A stretch of DNA of 23,168 bases from a bacterium (GTDB lineage: Bacteria > Zhuqueibacterota > Zhuqueibacteria > Oceanimicrobiales > Oceanimicrobiaceae), in NCBI GenBank assembly GCA_046757165.1, contig JBHHXT010000065.1, positions 1 to 23,168 on the forward strand, written 5' to 3'. Of this stretch, positions 1 to 9,863 are shown one piece after another (the stretch's first letter is position 1; every line of letters begins with the position of its first letter). The position numbers and the translations under genes are program-made. Below the pieces are notes generated by a model. The model was not told where the DNA came from. It saw only the letters and a program-made list of their open reading frames with translations, and searched no databases.

Positions 1-58
1 CTAAATAGCAACTTAAGTGCTCCGAAATCCCACAACGGCTGAAACGTGTCGTTAGAGC
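1..58 (+). other. Right part of an attC-like recombination site, truncated by the window edge; core GTTAGAG at 51-57
   Basis: GTTAGAGC (51-58) is the exact reverse complement of GCTCTAAC (737-744) downstream of the TA pair, as expected for cassette boundaries. It shares the gtgct..gaaatccc motif with the attC at 1533-1660. Confidence 0.6.
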
Positions 59-71
59 TGAGAAAAATCAG

Positions 72-100
72 TTGAAATAGTCCATATTTTATCCTATATT
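72..100 (+). promoter_or_regulatory. Sigma70-type promoter of the TA operon with probable autorepression operator
   Basis: TTGAAA (72-77), 17 bp spacer, TATATT (95-100). Inverted repeats tccatattt/aaatatgga (81-89/120-128) and tattca..tgaata (97-112) overlap it. Confidence 0.6.
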
Positions 101-135
101 CACACTTGAATAGTGGTTTAAATATGGAGCATAAG

Positions 136-426
136 ATGAAACATCTGAATATCTCAAACGACATTGTCCCCATTGGTGAGTTTAAATCGAGTCTTTCTAA
201 ATGGCTAAAGAATATTCAGAATACTGGACATCCGTTAGTTATTACAAAAAACGGTAGACCTGCCGGTGTTCTGTTATCGCCTACCGAATACGACGAACTC
301 GTCTACAAAAGACATTTTCTTGATTCGGTTAATCGAGGGCTTTCGGATGCTGAATCAGGTAATGTCTATTCGACAAAGGAATTGAAAAAGGAACTCGATA
401 AAAGACGTCAAAGAGGTACTAAGTGA
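136..426 (+). CDS. Type II antitoxin, Phd/YefM family
   Basis: Motif IVPIGEFKSSLSKWLKNIQNTGHPLVITKNGRPAGVLLS is typical of Phd/YefM. GGAG RBS precedes the ATG at 136. It overlaps the toxin start by 4 nt. Confidence 0.92.
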   Translation: MKHLNISNDIVPIGEFKSSLSKWLKNIQNTGHPLVITKNGRPAGVLLSPTEYDELVYKRHFLDSVNRGLSDAESGNVYSTKELKKELDKRRQRGTK

Positions 427-722
427 GGGTCGTATGGACGCAAGAAGCCTTGGATAGATTATCAGACATCGAAGATTTCATTTCGCAAGACAGTCCCCAA
501 CGTGCAGCGAGCTTTGTAAATTACCTGATTCAAAGAGGGGAAGGAGTTTCTAAGAATCCTCGAATAGGGCGAATTGTTCCCGAAATCTCTAATCCTAGTG
601 TCAGAGAAATCATTGCCAAAAAATATAGAATTGTTTATCGAATTCAAGAGAATAAAATCGAAATACTAACGGTCTTCGAAGGACACAAGCTGCTAAGTTT
701 AGAAGAACTGCGCATAGAATAA
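423..722 (+). CDS. Type II toxin, RelE/ParE family
   Basis: VVWTQEALDRLSDIEDFI...NPRIGRIVPE...YRIVYRI...ILTVFEG pattern, 99 aa, translationally coupled to the antitoxin. Confidence 0.92.
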   Translation: MRVVWTQEALDRLSDIEDFISQDSPQRAASFVNYLIQRGEGVSKNPRIGRIVPEISNPSVREIIAKKYRIVYRIQENKIEILTVFEGHKLLSLEELRIE

Positions 723-737
723 CAGCGGCAAATCATG

Positions 738-801
738 CTCTAACGACATAAGAGCTGCAACGGACGCGTTTTTTGCGTCCGCTTGCAGCGAATGGTTGAA
801 C
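738..801. other. attC-like site (64 bp) after the TA cassette
   Basis: CTCTAAC...GTTGAAC cores. Arms gctgcaacggacgc / gcgtccgcttgcagc have one unpaired base in the right arm, so the site may read canonically on the minus strand. Spacers are 9 and 5 nt. Confidence 0.7.
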
Positions 802-1539
802 CCCGACACTCATCATTATGCTCTCAAAAGGAGAGTCGGGGCTGCAGCACCTATTTGGATTTTCAATCAAGATTTTTCGGGAGGAAAACACAGGATATTT
901 GGAGGGAAAGCCAACTTATCTGAGCTGTTTTGCGGGGGGTGCCCAGGCGCTGTGTTTGCCTTGACGATGGTTGACGATGGTTGGGCCACGTTGCACCAGT
1001 TTCCGGGACAGGCCGCACGAGTAGATGGTCAACAGACAGACGCGGTAGCGCTGGAAGCGGACGCAGGAGAGGATGCGACGAATCTCAGAGTGAGTGAGTA
1101 CCACTGGCATGCGCTTTTCCCGGCGGGCGCGCACGAATTTTAGTGTGGGCCAGTCGCGCTTCAGGGTGTTTTCATAGAAGAACTCGATGCCACACAAGGA
1201 GATGGTGCTGGCGGTTCGCGACCACTTCTTGACGTTTTTGACGTAGAGAAAATAATCGCGCAGCTCTTCTTCGGTGATTTGGTCAGGAGACTTGCCGTAG
1301 TGTTCGGCCAGGAGCCGGACGGCACGCACGTACATCTTTTGGGTGCGTTCGGAGTATCCGCGCAGCCCCGAAGGCTTTCGGGGCATGCGCTCTCTGAGTT
1401 TGGTCATAATATACCTCCTTAGAATAAAAGGTGAATATTTGGCATTGGTATATTATGACCTTGAAACCAAAAAAGCCAGCCCTTTTCAGCGGGAGCTGGC
1501 CGTTGAGATAAGCTGCCTGCGCAGCGGGCTCAGTTCAAC
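795..1539 (-). mobile_element. Internally deleted tyrosine-recombinase/IS91-like element bounded by GTTGAAC...GTTCAAC
   Basis: Inverted 7-bp ends, sub-terminal hairpins (ccccgac..gtcgggg at 801-842; gccagc..gctggc at about 1476-1500) and an integrase remnant inside. Confidence 0.6.
916..1407 (-). pseudogene. Truncated tyrosine recombinase (phage-integrase N-terminal SAM-like domain and start of catalytic domain) fused to an unrelated short C-terminus
   Basis: MTKLRERM..LRGYSERTQKMYVRAVRLLAEHYGKSPDQITEEELRDYFLY...PVVLTHSEIRRIL...LLTIYSCGL breaks at the catalytic GLR motif, and no HxxR or catalytic Tyr follows. Strong AGGAGG RBS. Confidence 0.85.
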
Positions 1540-1660
1540 ATGTTCGTGCTCTTGACGGCGGGGCGCCGTGTTTTTATTAAAGTCTGCGCTGGTGCTCAGT
1601 TTTATGCTGTTTGGATAGTCCGTGCTGGAAATCCCGCCGCAAGAGACGATGCCGTTATAC
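1533..1660 (+). other. attC site (128 bp)
   Basis: R'' GTTCAAC (1533-1539) and R' GTTATAC (1654-1660). Arms tcgt(g)ctcttg(a)cggcggg (1544-1562) and cccgccgcaagagacga (1633-1649) pair perfectly except for two extrahelical bases, the attC hallmark. Confidence 0.85.
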
Positions 1661-1692
1661 GGTATAACTTTCCACGCTAATAAGGTAAAAAT

Positions 1693-2898
1693 ATGAGCAA
1701 AAGAATTTTAGTTATGCCTGACGGAAATTGGTTATCGCACACATCGAGACCATTTGAGATAACAAAAGTCCTCAGAGAAATGGGTCACGAAATTGTTTTT
1801 GCCAGTGATGGCGAATATATGAAATTACCAAGAGACGAAGGATTTTCAGTTTTACCTATCAGAACTATTGCGCCAGAACGTGTGTTAGCCTGCTCACGAA
1901 ATGGTAGAGCAAATTGGTTTGACTACGAGCTAATAAAAGAATGCGTAGAACAAGAATTAACCTTGTTCGATCAAGTAAAACCTGATTTGGTTTTAACAGA
2001 TTTCAGGCTACCTTTGAGCACCTCTTGTGAGTTGGCCAATATCCCTTTAGCTGTCATCCTGAATGCCTCCTGGACCGATTATTATTCGGTTAGAGTTAAA
2101 GCGCCTGAACATCTTGGAGTGACACGAATTTTCGGAAAAAGCTTAACAACTTCGTTCTTCCCTTGGGTAAAAGATTTCATCTTAACTTTTGACTCAAAAC
2201 CGTTTAATAAATTCCGGCGTGAAAAGGGATTGAGCCATCGCAAAAATATTTGGGATATCTGGCGGGGAGATTTAAACCTAATTGTGGATATTCCAGAGTA
2301 CGGTCCAACAGAAAATCTTCCCGACAATTTTCATTACATCGGCCCAATAATTTGGGAACCGGAGATGGAATCACCAGATTGGTTAGAAGACTTGGACTCC
2401 GGAAAACCAACGCTCTACTTCACAATGGGAAGTACTGGGCATACCCATTTCTTTGAACAAGCTATCGAAATTTTTGGAGACACGGAATATCAGTGTATAA
2501 TGACGACTGCTGGAATGGCTGCTCTCCATAACATCCCAAATAACTTTTATGTGGTTGACTACGCCCCTGGCAGCAAAATTATGGAAAAGAGTGACCTCGT
2601 GGTTTGCCAGGGTGGGAACGGAACCATTTATCAAGCGATGGCAAAAGGTGTGCCTGTTATCGGTATTGCGACTATGCATGATCAAGAATGGAATCTTGAC
2701 AGAGTTGAGAGCCTGGGAATTGGCATTCATTTAAGTGATTTGAAATTTAAACCTGTCCATCTTGCAGAAGCTGTAGAAAAGATATTGTCGGAAGAAAGTT
2801 ATTTAAAGAATGCACTTCAATATAAAAATATATTGGAAGGATATAACGGGCCTAATCAAGGAGCACAATTAATAGATTCTTATCTAAACAAGACGTGA
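1693..2898 (+). CDS. GT-B fold glycosyltransferase (GT1/MGT or GT28-like), cassette-borne
   Basis: N-terminal SHTSRPFEITKVLREMGHEIVFA. C-terminal LYFTMGSTG...DLVVCQGGNGTIYQAMAKGVPVIGIATMHDQEWN nucleotide-sugar binding motif. AT-rich and flanked by attC-like sites. Confidence 0.88.
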   Translation: MSKRILVMPDGNWLSHTSRPFEITKVLREMGHEIVFASDGEYMKLPRDEGFSVLPIRTIAPERVLACSRNGRANWFDYELIKECVEQELTLFDQVKPDLVLTDFRLPLSTSCELANIPLAVILNASWTDYYSVRVKAPEHLGVTRIFGKSLTTSFFPWVKDFILTFDSKPFNKFRREKGLSHRKNIWDIWRGDLNLIVDIPEYGPTENLPDNFHYIGPIIWEPEMESPDWLEDLDSGKPTLYFTMGSTGHTHFFEQAIEIFGDTEYQCIMTTAGMAALHNIPNNFYVVDYAPGSKIMEKSDLVVCQGGNGTIYQAMAKGVPVIGIATMHDQEWNLDRVESLGIGIHLSDLKFKPVHLAEAVEKILSEESYLKNALQYKNILEGYNGPNQGAQLIDSYLNKT

Positions 2899-2952
2899 AG
2901 AAAGACATCTTAAGTATCATAACATATTGGTGTTTAACTCTACAAAAGTAGC

Positions 2953-3036
2953 GCATAACTTGTGGCTGGTGCCGACGCCTAACTTGGTGCGTTGTGGATA
3001 GATTTCCTGGGCGGCAGACAATTGTTCACGTTAGCA
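2953..3036 (+). other. Degenerate or hybrid attC-like site
   Basis: GCATAAC (2953-2959) is nearly complementary to the cassette-start GTTATAC, and GTTAGCA lies at 3030-3036. The arms pair only partly (tgccgacgcc / gggcggca). Confidence 0.4.
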
Positions 3037-3084
3037 GGTTCAGACGATGAAATCCCCATAGCAATAAGGCGGAGCCGCGGCTTC

Positions 3085-3242
3085 GTCCAACAAAATTTTA
3101 TGCGTAATTGGGCGTGTACGCTTCTTGATTTTGCTGTAGGGTCGCGTTTCGTTCTCCGCTTGAAATCGGATGGTATAGCACGGCTCAACTACGCATCAAG
3201 TCCTTAATGTTTCAACTACGCATAAAATCCTTGATGTTATAT
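3085..3242 (+). other. Long attC-like hairpin with duplicated right arm
   Basis: GTCCAAC (3085-3091). attttatgcgtaattg pairs with caactacgcataaaat. GTTATAT at 3236-3242. The right arm is present twice (3185-3211 and 3212-3238). Confidence 0.55.
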
Positions 3243-3320
3243 TGTTATGTTGTTTATTTTATAGTAGAGTGTTGGCCCTGAGGAACAATTCAACAATAGA
3301 GCAATAGAACAATGGAACAT
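3236..3320. repeat. 8-bp periodic repeat (aacaatag-like) with an inverted counterpart
   Basis: aacaattc aacaatag agcaatag aacaatgg aacat (3284-3320) faces gttatatt gttatgtt gtt (3236-3254). Confidence 0.55.
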
Positions 3321-3328
3321 TTCTTTGC

Positions 3329-4147
3329 CTAGCGACTCCGAAGTTTGTAGAGCATCGGTCTGCTGGGTGCGGCGTCGGCGACAAAGGCAGGAATTTGCAG
3401 ATTTAGGATGTACTGGCCATCCCCAACCTGATCTGGAACAAAGATCATTTCTGTTATCGTCTTCATCGAGTGTGACCGTGGATTTGCGTCATGGCTTTCC
3501 TCAGGCAAATCCCAGAAAATATGATGTGTGGTCATTTTGCCTTCGTCGAGCGTCCGGTCCACGGACGGGATGTCAACCAGAAGATGCTGCACATTCAATG
3601 CACAAACCAGTTGCATGGCTTCGGTTGTAAAATAGGGAGGAGGCGGCTCCGCGTACCGGCGTGACCGCTTGCAGGGGTCGTTGGGCAGGGTGCGCACGAG
3701 CAGTCCCTGCAGAAAGTGCTTGCTGTGTTTAGCAAGTTGACATTCAAGCCGCGCTTTCGTCAGCATCTGGTCTCCCGCTTTTGCCTCCGGACGGCAGGTT
3801 TCCTGACACGTTTCGGCGGGTTCCGGCGCCACCGAAATCAGGGTCGCAGGCATGAAGCTGCTGCGCAGCACCTCGTGGAGTGAGATCCGCTCCAGGGCAA
3901 GATGCCCCACACATTCGGTGTGCGTGCCGTTGCAGTGCGGAATCAGGCGGTACGCCTCAAAATTACAACTGCCCCCCCGTCTGGTGTCGCCAACGAGTGA
4001 ACCGGCCTCGTAGGCTCGGGCGCTGGCAAGCGGGACGTCGTAGGTGTTTGGTTGCTCACCGTTGAAACGCAATGGAATGGAAAGGTCGATAGGGTGGGCT
4101 GCATCGATCTCGTATCGTGTGGTTGAAATTTCGACCTGAATGTTCAT
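3329..4147 (-). CDS. kynB: Cyclase-family protein, probable kynurenine formamidase
   Basis: PIDLSIPL, HCNGTHTE (HxGTHxD/E-like) and HLLVDIPSVDR motifs. The start overlaps the ACMSD stop (TGATG). Kynurenine cluster context. Confidence 0.75.
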   Translation of the reverse strand: MNIQVEISTTRYEIDAAHPIDLSIPLRFNGEQPNTYDVPLASARAYEAGSLVGDTRRGGSCNFEAYRLIPHCNGTHTECVGHLALERISLHEVLRSSFMPATLISVAPEPAETCQETCRPEAKAGDQMLTKARLECQLAKHSKHFLQGLLVRTLPNDPCKRSRRYAEPPPPYFTTEAMQLVCALNVQHLLVDIPSVDRTLDEGKMTTHHIFWDLPEESHDANPRSHSMKTITEMIFVPDQVGDGQYILNLQIPAFVADAAPSRPMLYKLRSR

Positions 4148-5160
4148 CACATAAATCGACTTTTTTCTAAACCGAGCCATGCCAATGCCGAGCCATGCAG
4201 AAGGTTTTCTCTCGTCTGGGTGCTGAGATTCTTCATCGATTCGATCAGTTGACCTGGATGAAGCTCGCCGAGTGGAAACGGATAGTCCGAGCCGAGCGCG
4301 ATCTTGTCCGCGCCGACCAGGTCGATCAAATAGTTGAGCATGGCCGGCTCGTGCACGAGCGAATCCAGATAGAACCTGCCCAGGTAGGTTCTCGGATTGA
4401 CCGGGTTGTCGACAGCGCACAGGTCCGGTCTCACGTTGAAGCCGTGCTCGATTCTACCAATCGTCGCCGGAAATGAACCGCCACCGTGGGCAAACGCGAC
4501 TCTTAGCGCGGGCAACCGCTCGAACACCCCGCCAAAAACCATCGAGCAGATCGCCAGGCTGGTTTCGGCAGGCATGCCCACCAGCCAGGGCAGCCAGTAT
4601 TTTGGCATCTTTTCTTTGCCCATCATGTCCCAGGGGTGCACGAAGACGGCGGCGCCCAGGTCCTCGGCTGCCTGGAAAACTGGAAACAGGGCGGCATCGT
4701 TCAAGTTCCACTCGTTGACGTGGGAGCCGATCTGCACGCCGGCTAACCCCAACTGTTCAACGCACCGCTCCAGCTCTTGTATTGCCAGCTCCGGCGCCTG
4801 CATCGGCAGGGTGCCGAGCCCAATGAACCGCTTTGGCCAATCCGCGACGATAGCCGCGATGTGGTCGTTGAGCCGTCTGGCCAGATCGAGCGTGTCTTCG
4901 GGTTTGGCCCAGTAGCTGAACATGACCGGGACGGTTGAAAGCACCTGCACATTCACGTGGTGCTCATCGCACTCTTGCAGGCGCACGCCGGGGTCCCAGC
5001 AGTTGTGCTGCACCTCGCGGAAGAACTCGCCGTCCCGCATCATTCTTGCGCAAGACGGCTGGTGGTGCTCGAGGCTCACAAAGCCGCCGTAGCCGTATTT
5101 TTCACGCAGGTCGGGCCAGGTTTTGGGCAGGATATGCGTATGAATGTCGATCTTCAGCAC
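4147..5160 (-). CDS. nbaD: 2-amino-3-carboxymuconate-6-semialdehyde decarboxylase (ACMSD, amidohydrolase family)
   Basis: KIDIHTHILP, FVHPWDM, PWLVGMPAET, AHGGGSFP and LGSDYPFPLGE motifs of ACMSD. Confidence 0.93.
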   Translation of the reverse strand: MLKIDIHTHILPKTWPDLREKYGYGGFVSLEHHQPSCARMMRDGEFFREVQHNCWDPGVRLQECDEHHVNVQVLSTVPVMFSYWAKPEDTLDLARRLNDHIAAIVADWPKRFIGLGTLPMQAPELAIQELERCVEQLGLAGVQIGSHVNEWNLNDAALFPVFQAAEDLGAAVFVHPWDMMGKEKMPKYWLPWLVGMPAETSLAICSMVFGGVFERLPALRVAFAHGGGSFPATIGRIEHGFNVRPDLCAVDNPVNPRTYLGRFYLDSLVHEPAMLNYLIDLVGADKIALGSDYPFPLGELHPGQLIESMKNLSTQTRENLLHGSALAWLGLEKSRFM

Positions 5161-5166
5161 AGCCGC

Positions 5167-5703
5167 TCAGCCCTTTTTCATCGGAGGCTGCATCACGCTG
5201 CCACATTTCGCGCAGGTGCGGTACTGGTCGGACTCATGGAATTTCTCCATGACACCGCGCAGTTTGTCGACGATATCGGAAGGTTTGTCCAGGTGAAAAT
5301 ACTCATCGTACAGCTTTTCGCCGCAGTTTTCGCAGAACCACATGCAGCCATCGTTTTCCTCGGAACGACGGCTGCGTTCGATAACCAGCCCGACGGTGTT
5401 TTCCGGACGCTGGGGCGAGTGTGGAACTTTCGCTGGCAGCAGGAAAATCTCGCCCTCCCGGATGGGGATGTCGACTTTTTTGCCATCGTCGATGATCTTC
5501 AGCACCATGTCTCCTTCGATCTGGAAAAAGAACTCCTCCCCTTCGTTGTAGTGGTAGTCTTTACGCTGGTTGGGCCCACCCACTACCATCACGATGAAGT
5601 CCTTTGCTTCATCATAGACACACTTGTTGCCGACCGGCGGTTTCAGCAAGTGGCGATGCTCATCGATCCATTGTGTGAAGTTGAAAGCAGCCAGGTTTGA
5701 CAT
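5167..5703 (-). CDS. nbaC: 3-hydroxyanthranilate 3,4-dioxygenase
   Basis: WIDEHRHLLKPPVGNK, VGGPNQRKDYH, EEFFFQIEGDM, VPHSPQRP and rubredoxin-like CENC/CAKC motifs. GGAGG RBS before the ATG at 5703. Confidence 0.95.
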   Translation of the reverse strand: MSNLAAFNFTQWIDEHRHLLKPPVGNKCVYDEAKDFIVMVVGGPNQRKDYHYNEGEEFFFQIEGDMVLKIIDDGKKVDIPIREGEIFLLPAKVPHSPQRPENTVGLVIERSRRSEENDGCMWFCENCGEKLYDEYFHLDKPSDIVDKLRGVMEKFHESDQYRTCAKCGSVMQPPMKKG

Positions 5704-5812
5704 GTTCGACCTCCCTAAGTTGGTTTTGGTATTGTCAAAAGGTTTCTGACGTTTGTAGTTGACAAGAGCTGTACTTAACATACTTCGTGATTGGCCGCAA
5801 AGCCTAACCCGT

Positions 5813-5894
5813 AACCGCGAATGAGCGCTAATGTACGCGAATGAAAAAAATAGAGTGAAAAACAATTAGCGTGCATTAGCGCTCATTCGCGGTT
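5813..5894. repeat. Long intergenic inverted repeat (REP/MITE-like)
   Basis: 30-bp arms (5813-5842 / 5865-5894), 28/30 complementary, with an internal 10-bp periodicity of cgcgaat/cgctaat. Confidence 0.8.
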
Positions 5895-5968
5895 TGCTAA
5901 AAAACATCGCGGCAGAAACTCTGCATTTTTGTGTAATGACTTCACTTCATTAGGTCAGCTGCCAGAGG

Positions 5969-6376
5969 CTACAGTGTCGCAATGCACTTGAGCTCGATGG
6001 CGATCGGGGTTGGCAAAGCATTGACCCCGACTGTTGTCCGGCACGGCTGATTCTCCTCAAAATACTCGGCGTAGACACGGTTGTAGGCTGCGAAATCATC
6101 CTTGATGTTGGTCAAAAAGACGGTCACATCAACCAGCTTGTCCCAGCTCGACCCGGCTTCCTGCAGAATGATTCGGACGTTCTTGAACACAGCGTGGCAC
6201 TGCGCCTCGATGTCGTAGGCAATCACCTTCCCGTGCTCATCCAGCTCAACTCCTGGAATGGTCTCTGTGCCCCGCTGGCGTGGACCGACGCCTGAAAGGA
6301 AAAGCAGGTTCCCGACTTTGCGGGCATGGGGGTAGAGGCCGACAGGCTCAGGAGCGGCCCTGGAGGTCACGTTCAT
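5969..6376 (-). CDS. RidA/YjgF family protein, probable 2-aminomuconate deaminase
   Basis: APEPVGLYPHARKVGNLLFLSG...PCRTTV..LPTPIAIELKCIA. ATGA overlap with the dehydrogenase stop. Pathway context. Confidence 0.85.
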   Translation of the reverse strand: MNVTSRAAPEPVGLYPHARKVGNLLFLSGVGPRQRGTETIPGVELDEHGKVIAYDIEAQCHAVFKNVRIILQEAGSSWDKLVDVTVFLTNIKDDFAAYNRVYAEYFEENQPCRTTVGVNALPTPIAIELKCIATL

Positions 6377-7815
6377 AGCTTCACGCAGACATTCTTCGGT
6401 TCGGTAAAAAATCGCAGCGCCTCCAGGCCACCTTCCCGTCCCACGCCGGAATGCTTCATGCCGCCAAACGGTGACCGAAGGTCGCGCACCATCCAGCAAT
6501 TGATCCAGATGATGCCTGCCTGCAGTTGGTTGGCGATTCGGTGGGCTCTGCTCAAGTTCTCCGTCCAGATGGTTGCGGCCAACCCGTATTCAGTGGCGTT
6601 TGCCTGCTTCACCACCTCTTCCTCATCGTCGAATGCGATCAAGCTCACGACCGGGCCAAAGATTTCCTCCTGGTTGGTGCGGCACTCATTCGGCAACCCT
6701 TCGAGGATGGTTGGCTCGACAAACCAGCCGTTTCGGCAGCGGCCCTCGACCTCGACTTGTTTGCCGCCACACAACAGTTGTCCCCCTTCTTGCTGCCCGA
6801 GTTTAATGTAGGAAAGGATCTTGTTGCGATGCGTTTCCGAGACCACAGCGCCAAGCTGGCTTTTTTCTGACATCGGATCGCCGACTTTCAGCTCCCGCGC
6901 ACGCCCGACAAAATCCTGCTTGAATTTTTCGTAGAGCGGGCGTTGGACAAAAATCCTGGAACCACAAAGACAAATCTGGCCCTGGTTTGAAAAGGAAGAG
7001 CGCAAGGTGGTGTGCAACATTTCGTCATAATTGCAGTCCGAAAAAATGATGTTCGGATTCTTGCCGCCCATCTCGAGCGAAAGTTTTTTGAAAAGGGGAG
7101 AGGCGGCTCTGGAAATTTCGGCACCTGTTCGTGTGCTCCCGGTGAACGTGATGACAGGAATCCCCGGGTGCGCTGAAATGGCGGCCCCGACTTTGTGGCC
7201 GTAGCCGTGCACAATATTCAGGACCCCAGCCGGCAGACCCGCTTCCATGCAAAGCTTCGACAGCAAGTAGGCCGTCATCGGCGTGATCTCGGATGGCTTG
7301 CTCACAACACAGTTGCCAGCAGCCAGGGCGGGTGCAATTTTCCAGGTCAAAAGATAGAGCGGCAGGTTCCACGGTGAAATGCAACCCACCACCCCGATGG
7401 GATTGCGCACCGTGTAGTTGATGGCCCTCTGCGCCATCATGTGCGCTTCGCTGGCAAACTGCAAAATCGCGCCGGCAAAAAACCGCAGGTTGCTGGCAGC
7501 CCTCGGAATATCGACGGTTCGGGCAAGAGCAAGCGGTTTGCCATTGTCGATGCTCTCTGCAAGTGCCAGGTTATCCAGGTTTTGCTCGATGAGGTCGGCA
7601 ACATCGGTCAGCAGTTTTGCGCGTTTTTCGCCTGGCGTCATCGACCAGCTCGCGAACGCCTTCTGCGCCGCGCTCACGGCCACGTCTACCTCGCGTTCAT
7701 CGGAGTCGGGCACCAGGGAGTAAGTCTCGCCCGTGGCCGGTTCGACGTTGTCGATATATGTGCGAGCATGTGGAGGCGCGAGCTCGCCGTTGATGTAGTT
7801 TTGAATCGTCTCCAT
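6373..7815 (-). CDS. Aldehyde dehydrogenase, probable 2-aminomuconate 6-semialdehyde dehydrogenase (ALDH8-like)
   Basis: ISPWNLPLYLLTWKIAPA, FTGST, SLEMGGKN, NQGQICLCGSR and EEIFGPV motifs; operon context. Confidence 0.9.
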   Translation of the reverse strand: METIQNYINGELAPPHARTYIDNVEPATGETYSLVPDSDEREVDVAVSAAQKAFASWSMTPGEKRAKLLTDVADLIEQNLDNLALAESIDNGKPLALARTVDIPRAASNLRFFAGAILQFASEAHMMAQRAINYTVRNPIGVVGCISPWNLPLYLLTWKIAPALAAGNCVVSKPSEITPMTAYLLSKLCMEAGLPAGVLNIVHGYGHKVGAAISAHPGIPVITFTGSTRTGAEISRAASPLFKKLSLEMGGKNPNIIFSDCNYDEMLHTTLRSSFSNQGQICLCGSRIFVQRPLYEKFKQDFVGRARELKVGDPMSEKSQLGAVVSETHRNKILSYIKLGQQEGGQLLCGGKQVEVEGRCRNGWFVEPTILEGLPNECRTNQEEIFGPVVSLIAFDDEEEVVKQANATEYGLAATIWTENLSRAHRIANQLQAGIIWINCWMVRDLRSPFGGMKHSGVGREGGLEALRFFTEPKNVCVKL

Positions 7816-9834: not shown

Positions 9835-9863
9835 AGGCTAAACAAATATTCTCAAAAAGTCAA
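9835..9863 (-). promoter_or_regulatory. Putative sigma70 promoter of the kynurenine cluster
   Basis: TTGACT, 17 bp spacer, TAGCCT on the minus strand, about 40 bp upstream of the kynA start. Confidence 0.45.

Follow-up and report, generated by a model that had tools for sequence, protein, structure and literature searches.

Organization of the locus

The window, by which we mean the whole stretch of 23,168 nucleotides that was analysed, begins at the start of contig C65 of genome G000, and its first 3 kb hold a cassette array on the plus strand (Table 1). The array comprises, in this order, a cut attC, a Phd/ParE toxin-antitoxin cassette, a mobile element, a second attC, a glycosyltransferase cassette and a degenerate site from 2953 onwards. 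The weak fold of the first attC is due to its truncation. The toxin-antitoxin cassette is delimited by GTTAGAG (51) and CTCTAAC (738), which are exact complements, and the R' core GTTATAC of the second attC lies at 1654-1660. Behind the glycosyltransferase gene, an R''-like GCATAAC at 2953 is followed by a degenerate attC that scores 0 in our attC heuristic. At 1654-1668, GTTATAC, one base and the exact complement GTATAAC succeed each other, an arrangement that resembles an almost empty cassette.

No intI gene was found in the first 3 kb of the window, that is, in the array stretch, and an Rfam search of positions 1-4000 gave no match. The best IntI candidate of the genome, on C78 (19670-20560), remained under the family cut-off; this IntI-like gene has an internal deletion, its middle part is missing, and no array adjoins it. 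A second IntI-like match, which is split, was seen on C383. The locus is present in contigs of public runs, with zero differences over 662-947 and 1471-3047; the runs that carry it belong to one study and may be the source sample. Downstream of the array, a non-coding repeat (3091-3330) has 19 further partial matches in the genome and a high depth in metagenome contigs. The minus-strand genes of 3329-6499 look, by eye from their translations, like a kynurenine pathway cluster (cyclase, ACMSD-like, HAAO-like and RidA-like).

Table 1. Features of the cassette array and of the element within it (arrow, insertion point)
Positions	Strand	Feature	Basis or remark
1..57	+	Upstream attC, 3' part	Cut by contig start; deduced from complementarity to 738-744
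51-57	+	R' core GTTAGAG	Opens the toxin-antitoxin cassette
106..722	+	Phd/YefM antitoxin and ParE/RelE toxin	PF02604 and PF05016 above cut-off; attC of this cassette is the insertion target
738..743	+	Target DNA, left flank of the element	First six bases of R'' core CTCTAA↓C
744..801	-	Ori-side terminal hairpin of the element	90% identical (62 bp) in L091; 93% in contig C58 of genome G000
802..841	.	REP-like hairpin, later insert	Repeat with about 23 occurrences in the genome; takes the place of most of the inner inverted repeat
842..1008	-	Non-coding region, 3' of the transposase in intact elements	842-917 78% like L091
1009..1407	-	Tyrosine recombinase, N-terminal 132 codons	88% to the full-length 290-aa P0007
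1366..1383	.	18-nt perfect small hairpin	Replaces a 15-nt stretch of relatives, in frame, changing residues 9-14 (alignment)
1408..1538	-	Ter-side end: ribosome site, putative promoter, terminator-like hairpin, terminal repeat starting TTGAACTGAGCCCG (1538 downwards)	82% to L091, L092 and L115 up to 1539
1539..1660	+	Rest of target attC (C of R'', L'', L', R' GTTATAC)	13/13 in the attC heuristic
1693..2898	+	Next cassette, glycosyltransferase	PF06722/PF04101; NCBIfam macrolide-family model only below cut-off

Boundaries of the element

A preliminary description of this DNA had taken a 745-bp segment with an integrase remnant, bounded by inverted heptamers, for a mobile element. The heptamers (GTTGAAC at 795-801 and GTTCAAC at 1533-1539) and the remnant are real, but the segment is not the element, which comparison with a complete relative places at 744-1538. 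Such heptamers by themselves are not rare, as the window holds five GTTGAAC and three GTTCAAC. Their position is nevertheless beyond chance, because TTGAAC together with a conserved tail lies about 40-190 bp before the recombinase gene in 97 of the 122 related loci having 230 bp of upstream DNA. A total of 163 related loci were fetched, and L171, which is the window itself, was left out; this tally and that of the transposases given below (139 of 143) include two loci of unpublished genomes (G158 and G162), on which no claim rests. Sorted by recombinase identity, the end in question, designated the ter end, was found in 97 of 114 loci at 52% or more and in none of 8 below 52%. A copy on a Photobacterium plasmid, at 39% identity, has both ends, unlike most relatives below 52%.

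Hairpins flank both heptamers (740-801, z -5.0/-5.5 compared to shuffles; 1533-1660, z -2.3/-3.4). To this extent the proposal that each end is the core of an attC-like hairpin was borne out; only the right one, however, is a canonical attC (1539-1660, 13/13), and the hairpin at 744-801 scores 0 as attC in both orientations. The complete relative, locus L091, is 2453 bp long and encodes a recombinase 90% identical to that of the window, then a Y2 transposase. It starts with TTGAACTGAGCCCG, and its body ends with the complement of this sequence, followed by the left hairpin of the window. As the similarity to L091 includes the left hairpin and stops at the AAC of 742-744, the element was delimited to 744-1538. 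The DNA at 918-1016 is 96% like C108, which continues into post-transposase sequence.

Which of the two hairpins belongs to the element could be decided from their distribution. The start of the ori hairpin was found in 15 copies, spread over nine genomes of the window's family among the 167 of the phylum. The DNA upstream of these copies is varied, and 14 of the 15 begin at AAC; seven run into element DNA and eight break off, so that none clearly supported the idea, which we dropped, that solo ori hairpins serve as attC for the cassette that follows. The right attC, on the other hand, is another one in the closest relatives: the element of L091 recurs in L092, and the attC-like DNA adjoining it at this end is different. 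The left hairpin travels with the element and the right one does not, and we conclude that the former is the element's own and the latter its target. The expectation that both ends would be fused to variable attC hairpins thus did not hold, since one is the ori end of the element and only the other is a variable target. Nor did we retain a sub-terminal hairpin proper to each end: 802-841 is a later repeat insert, and 1470-1536 folds no better than shuffled sequences (z -1.4/-0.8).

These observations bear on a simpler explanation, in which the region would be an ordinary gene cassette extending from 795 to 1654, with the right attC as its own and a decayed integrase carried in reverse. GTTGAAC and GTTCAAC are indeed complementary, like the two cores of one cassette, and at another locus, L176, a similar ter end adjoins a similar attC (about 72%). 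Against it, the hairpin that accompanies the element is the left one, identical elements (L091 and L092) have different attC-like flanks, attC sites of the L176 type occur without the element (in L092), and the same ends are found outside arrays. The co-travelling left hairpin and the varied right flanks largely refute this explanation, which we consider very improbable; the variant in which the right attC travels with the element, suggested by L176, was rejected because the same attC type occurs without the element and closer relatives have another attC.

Judged from these alignments, 744-1538 (795 bp) is an internally deleted copy of an IS91-family element of about 2.4 kb, made of a tyrosine recombinase gene, then a Y2 HUH transposase gene. 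By the same comparison it is inserted inverted, without target duplication, at AA↓C of the R'' core of the attC of the toxin-antitoxin cassette. Excision of 744-1538 would rejoin CTCTAA to the C at 1539 and would yield a canonical attC whose R'' is exactly complementary to the opening core of the cassette; the attC at 1539-1660 is most likely the original attC of that cassette. As to empty sites, toxin-antitoxin cassette DNA matched 22 of the 167 genomes of the phylum, and none of the nine related cassette loci examined had an intact attC behind it; for the target attC, no real relative was found in the 167 genomes (two matches of 21-22 bases). In contigs of four runs, neither a joint skipping the element nor a ter-ori circle junction was found; contigs drop rare variants, and a missing joint is therefore no evidence of absence.

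Three further observations were made on these ends. Locus L176 (1-970, genome G063) contains a 96% identical toxin-antitoxin cassette with the ter end of a related element and an attC upstream, and an ori hairpin start downstream, so that both neighbouring sites have been hit. In the window (744-801), the inner half of the ori hairpin, as in its clade, resembles the R''-L'' half of a host attC read in gene direction, unlike the usual stem of the family, and may have been captured from a target. On a Herpetosiphon plasmid (L216, 3390-3600), a distant relative has its ori hairpin in two tandem copies.

Recombinase and transposase genes

The remnant open reading frame, 916-1407 on the minus strand, matched only Phage_int_SAM_4 in Pfam. 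Its homology to recombinases ends just before the first catalytic arginine, and the frame continues to 916 through non-coding DNA, its last 30 residues being read from DNA that follows the transposase gene in intact elements. All six catalytic residues (R-K-H-R-H-Y) thus fall in the deleted part. In 76 full-length homologues (those of fewer than 300 residues among 120 listed), they were kept in 75, 76, 50, 74, 73 and 73 cases, respectively. The exception is the histidine of the HxxR motif, an arginine in 24 of the 76, P0007 among them; the other five are kept in 73 to 76.

The recombinase is not an IntI by the family model, as the remnant scores 65.6 bits where the TIGR02249 cut-off is 265. 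Its best match among solved structures is VchIntI4, whose insertion region of about 75 residues corresponds to about 43 in P0007; the IntI insertion, which handles folded DNA, is for the most part lacking. No programmed frameshift was seen in the recombinase gene: of 145 full-span genes, 129 consist of a single open frame, and where close relatives have breaks, these fall at differing places.

The preliminary description stated that integrases of this type are commonly paired with IS91-family Y2 transposases, and this proved to be the case. Of the 143 loci for which 300 bp or more of downstream DNA is available, 139 have a Y2 transposase gene directly downstream of the recombinase gene, duplicates and multi-copy genomes being included in the count. 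The L091 transposase matches the Pfam families Y2_Tnp (PF04986) and Zn_Tnp_IS91 (PF14319), and the HUH histidines and both tyrosines are present in all of the 83 distinct transposases. Among the homologues, then, the association with IS91 transposases and attC sites and the GTTCAAC boundary were all found, with conserved ends.

Target preference of the family

We then examined 88 distinct flanks of at least 150 bp, four loci having been dropped first (three duplicates and one partial match). They were scored with a home-made attC heuristic that starts at the junction, and assigned to the attC class at a score of at least 10/13. This class comprised 35 of the 88 flanks, against a background of 1.1% in shuffled sequences and of 1.3% at 9861 other AAC sites. 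The remaining flanks included 8 attC half-sites (background 1.4%) and 14 attI-like sites, TAA-N5/6-GTT (background 2.5%), two patterns picked after the data were seen; 31 fitted no class. Attack on attC cores, as proposed in the preliminary description, is therefore part of the picture: attC cores are a strongly enriched target of the family, but 45 of the 88 flanks are neither attC nor attC half-site, and attC is not the sole target.

Around the 35 loci of the attC class, 27 further attC sites were found, all opposed to the element and none in the same direction. In the window and in the 35 flanks alike, the element has entered at R'' and inverted, and not, as a cassette does, at R' or attI and in the direction of the array. 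On a tree of 67 recombinases, from which the window's own fragment is absent, the attC label takes 11 changes, so that attC targeting is not the property of one clade. On the branch that contains the closest relative, L092, all 10 rows are attC or half-site (support 91/86).

Junctions and terminal fold

At the ori side, 51 of the 68 distinct junctions read G↓TT and the other 17 do not. The tetranucleotides GTTC/CTTG used by IS91 were found at none of the 68, the window having CTAA at this place; a GTTC is present at the ter end, two bases inwards. Beyond this end, the first base varies (among 88 flanks, C 74, T 10, G 3 and A 1), even among nine identical copies in one genome. The A next to the C is replaced in three copies (L061, L066 and L085), which favours a cut at AA↓C over one at GTTC↓AAC; L085 may be rearranged, and the AA↓C cut is therefore likely rather than certain. 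There is no target duplication, as the flanks rejoin to a single attC or to simple sites, and only the core AA is present on both sides. Four relatives (L076, L079, L031 and L110) have an inner GTTCAAG instead of GTTCAAC and, at their end, a C in place of the G; two of them, L076 and L079, lie at AA↓G targets; a compensated shift of the core is possible in these cases.

The ori hairpin ends in the inner core GTTGAAC, and its outer arm resembles the oriIS of IS91. The consensus of the outer arm, C-GAATT-AAGAATT (47 ends), aligns with two fetched IS91-family ends, and with that of IS91 (CTTG↓ATCGATAGGAATT) at an equal distance from the junction; in the window copy, the match is partial (TAAGA). 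Terminal inverted repeats measure 15 bp in L091 and about 12 bp in most relatives, with one copy inside the ori hairpin. Beyond the core, the two ends pair at five successive bases in 45, 39, 40, 41 and 41 of 45 elements, compared to permutation means of 37.5, 32.5, 40, 32.6 and 32.6, with compensatory pairs at four of the five positions; these counts are not independent of ancestry.

When joined, the ends fold with a z of -8.9 for L091 and of about -6 for the window copy. The product is attC-like: the hairpin is long, has an R-box and an L-box as well as an asymmetric spacer, and contains a single bulged base. Hairpins were called in 66 of 89 loci with enough DNA, the window's type, which is the same in L091, being missed by the hairpin script. 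The 56 distinct hairpins that passed the filter (one 3'-arm bulge or none) all took the bulge, and in most hairpins of the family this is a single bulged G, T or C; in the window hairpin it lies on the arm opposite to the family norm.

Such a fold raises the question of whether the circles are inserted by the host integron integrase, the element being a cassette mimic that borrows IntI by means of a junction resembling attC. The crossover triplet is identical to that of IntI, the single bulged base agrees with it, and the copy of L083, in an attI-like site, has a divergent intI upstream of it. This explanation nevertheless appears unlikely. A crossover at R'' amounts to use of the top strand, which IntI strongly disfavours (about 10^4-fold for VCR, in the sections available of PMC2727003), the spacers of 9 and 5 nt are the reverse of those of attC, intI was present in two fetched loci only (flanks of up to 5 kb), and the best IntI candidate of this genome is the one without its middle part.

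Possible mode of transposition

The scheme that we favour, with a probability of roughly one half, is that a rolling-circle intermediate formed by the HUH enzyme is integrated by the element's own recombinase. By analogy with IS91, the HUH transposase would nick the ori end and release the anti-gene strand as a single-stranded circle. The joined ends of this circle would fold into the long attC-like hairpin and so provide the recombination substrate. The recombinase, a close relative of IntI, would then exchange one strand at AA↓C with a simple site, which may be attI-like or consist of the R''-L'' half of an attC as read on the opposite strand, and replication would resolve the junction.

Circle formation by the HUH enzyme, itself deduced from the IS91 model, is supported by the intact HUH/Y2 motifs of all 83 transposases and by the outer arm, which is in register with the IS91 end. 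The recombinase step is supported by the covariation of the ends beyond the core, by the fold of the joined ends, by the conservation of the catalytic R, K, R, H and Y and by the match to VchIntI4. Other observations count against this scheme, namely the 31 of 88 flanks that fit no class, the 17 of 68 ori junctions that are not G↓TT, the His to Arg change of HxxR in 24 of 76 homologues, the loss of most of the IntI insertion, the bulge of the window hairpin on the unusual arm, and the failure to find an empty site or a circle in the genomes and contigs covered. HUH and tyrosine-recombinase chemistry would break the same bond, and the position of the junction therefore cannot tell them apart.

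The transposase might do both, excising and inserting the element as in IS91 by attacking AA↓C at the foot of folded or simple sites, while the recombinase would be an accessory protein (target guide, regulator or dimer resolvase), as Orf121 assists IS91. The same transposase motifs and oriIS-like outer arm speak for this, as does the loss of the HxxR histidine; the accessible part of one report states, moreover, that IS91 TnpA alone inserts single-stranded circles (bioRxiv 2025.01.24.634351). In addition, one clade with T-rich non-attC targets is still spreading, with nine copies in one genome. This would leave unexplained why the terminal repeats covary and the bulge is conserved, why the integron triplet has taken the place of GTTC/CTTG, and why the other five catalytic residues of the recombinase are kept. 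We regard this alternative as a serious one, though doubtful.

Returning to integration by the recombinase, it can tentatively be proposed that the family is a self-mobile cassette uniting two chemistries, in which the ter-ori junction of a circle made by the HUH enzyme is at once oriIS and attC-like fold, and which an IntI-like recombinase devoid of the IntI insertion integrates at R'' or attI-like sites. The hairpin that is donated shares, in most relatives, the polarity of the array, and it may therefore serve as a replacement attC. On this proposal, integrons could have arisen through a step of which such elements are living models.

Relation to known systems

Several IS91-type elements with an integron-like recombinase gene are known, among them ISWz1, ISAzo26 and ISSod25. 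Intact relatives of the window copy share with the IS91 family (IS91, IS801, IS1294, IS1294b and the ISCR relatives) a Y2 HUH transposase with a zinc domain, an oriIS-like end with a sub-terminal palindrome downstream of the transposase gene (here the hairpin 744-801), the absence of a visible target duplication and an extra gene upstream of tnpA. They differ in that this gene encodes a tyrosine recombinase and not Orf121, and that the target is AA↓C in simple sites and not GTTC/CTTG/GTCC; the window copy, for its part, has no transposase. The ends also share inverted repeats of 12-15 bp, whereas IS91 is described as having none, in the portion of PMC5714925 at hand. According to the available text of bioRxiv 2025.01.24.634351, only the single-stranded circle of the bottom strand of IS91 inserts.

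The closest described group is that of the IS91-type elements with an integron-like recombinase such as ISShvi3, with which we could compare by description only. Their recombinases, like the present one, group with IntI and lack its insertion, and the accessible text of the same source gives no target rule, orientation, crossover point or junction fold (bioRxiv 542381). As far as the excerpts at hand show, ISShvi3 adjoins an attC in Shewanella (PMC9229058), and attC sites lie at or after ISCR28 (PMC12772301). No description of R'' targeting of attC by recombinase-bearing IS91 elements was found in the open-access literature.

The likeness to integron cassettes and IntI (attC x attI and attC x attC reactions) lies in the crossover at an AAC triplet, in the R-box, L-box and bulged base of the joined ends, and in VchIntI4 as the closest structure. 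IntI recombines at the point where A adjoins C in the triplet, normally in the bottom-strand R', and use of R'' inverts the insert (PMC5027507, in the part available). Unlike cassettes, these elements have their own enzymes, enter inverted at R'', have spacers of 9/5 compared to 5/5-8, and possess a hairpin that doubles as oriIS; the canonical attC of 1539-1660 does not travel with the element, and the hairpin that does scores 0. The family is thus an attC-homing, recombinase-bearing variant of IS91, IS91-like at the ori end and integron-cassette-like at the crossover, and is a strict member of neither group.

Selfish elements homing to attC are already represented by group IIC-attC introns, which enter attC at R'' opposite to the cassette direction (PMC7923331, accessible part), and by IS1111-attC, named in the available part of PMC9229058. 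These rely on RNA/reverse-transcriptase or IS110-type chemistry and have neither HUH transposase nor tyrosine recombinase. Strand-biased circularizing elements (SE-6945) and CTX-type single-stranded DNA integration resemble the present scheme in combining a single-stranded circle, a tyrosine recombinase and replicative resolution; in the text of PMC9345347 at hand, the sites of SE elements have no attC-like fold, and these elements no IS91 transposase.

The frequent use of the same spot by the relatives is a hint that two kinds of mobile DNA are connected in a way not yet described. If true, a DNA transposon that brings its own recombinase would join the few elements that home to attC. The family provides a defined substrate for testing the role of the recombinase in IS91 elements, and makes it possible to ask whether a relative of IntI without the IntI insertion recombines folded single strands, a question that bears on the origin of integrons. 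In the annotation of arrays, such elements and their remnants can pass for cassettes or attC sites.

Decay of the window copy

By its gene content the window copy is dead: it has lost the catalytic half of the recombinase together with all of the transposase, and it cannot move by itself. Its value is that of a pointer to the family. Compared to L091 (2453 bp), about 1.7 kb are missing from its 795 bp. After insertion, it would have lost this DNA and gained the REP-like insert, which makes it now a passenger in the array. Further element remnants lie in the same genome on C58, C164 and C108 and, by their ends, on C401 and C523.

At the place of the 802-841 hairpin, related contigs have eight letters, and the same variant of the hairpin as in the window is present in L207 and L199. 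The 18-nt hairpin at 1366-1383 has one exact copy in the genome. In both instances, a small stretch was replaced or enlarged by a hairpin of the CCCCGA...TCGGGG type, and L209 has a similar one inside its ori stem; something in this lineage may rewrite hairpins. The REP-like hairpin also lies in frame within Ser/Thr kinase-like open reading frames at C523 (1103-1143), where this is clear, and at C314 (3185-3225), adding about 15 residues.
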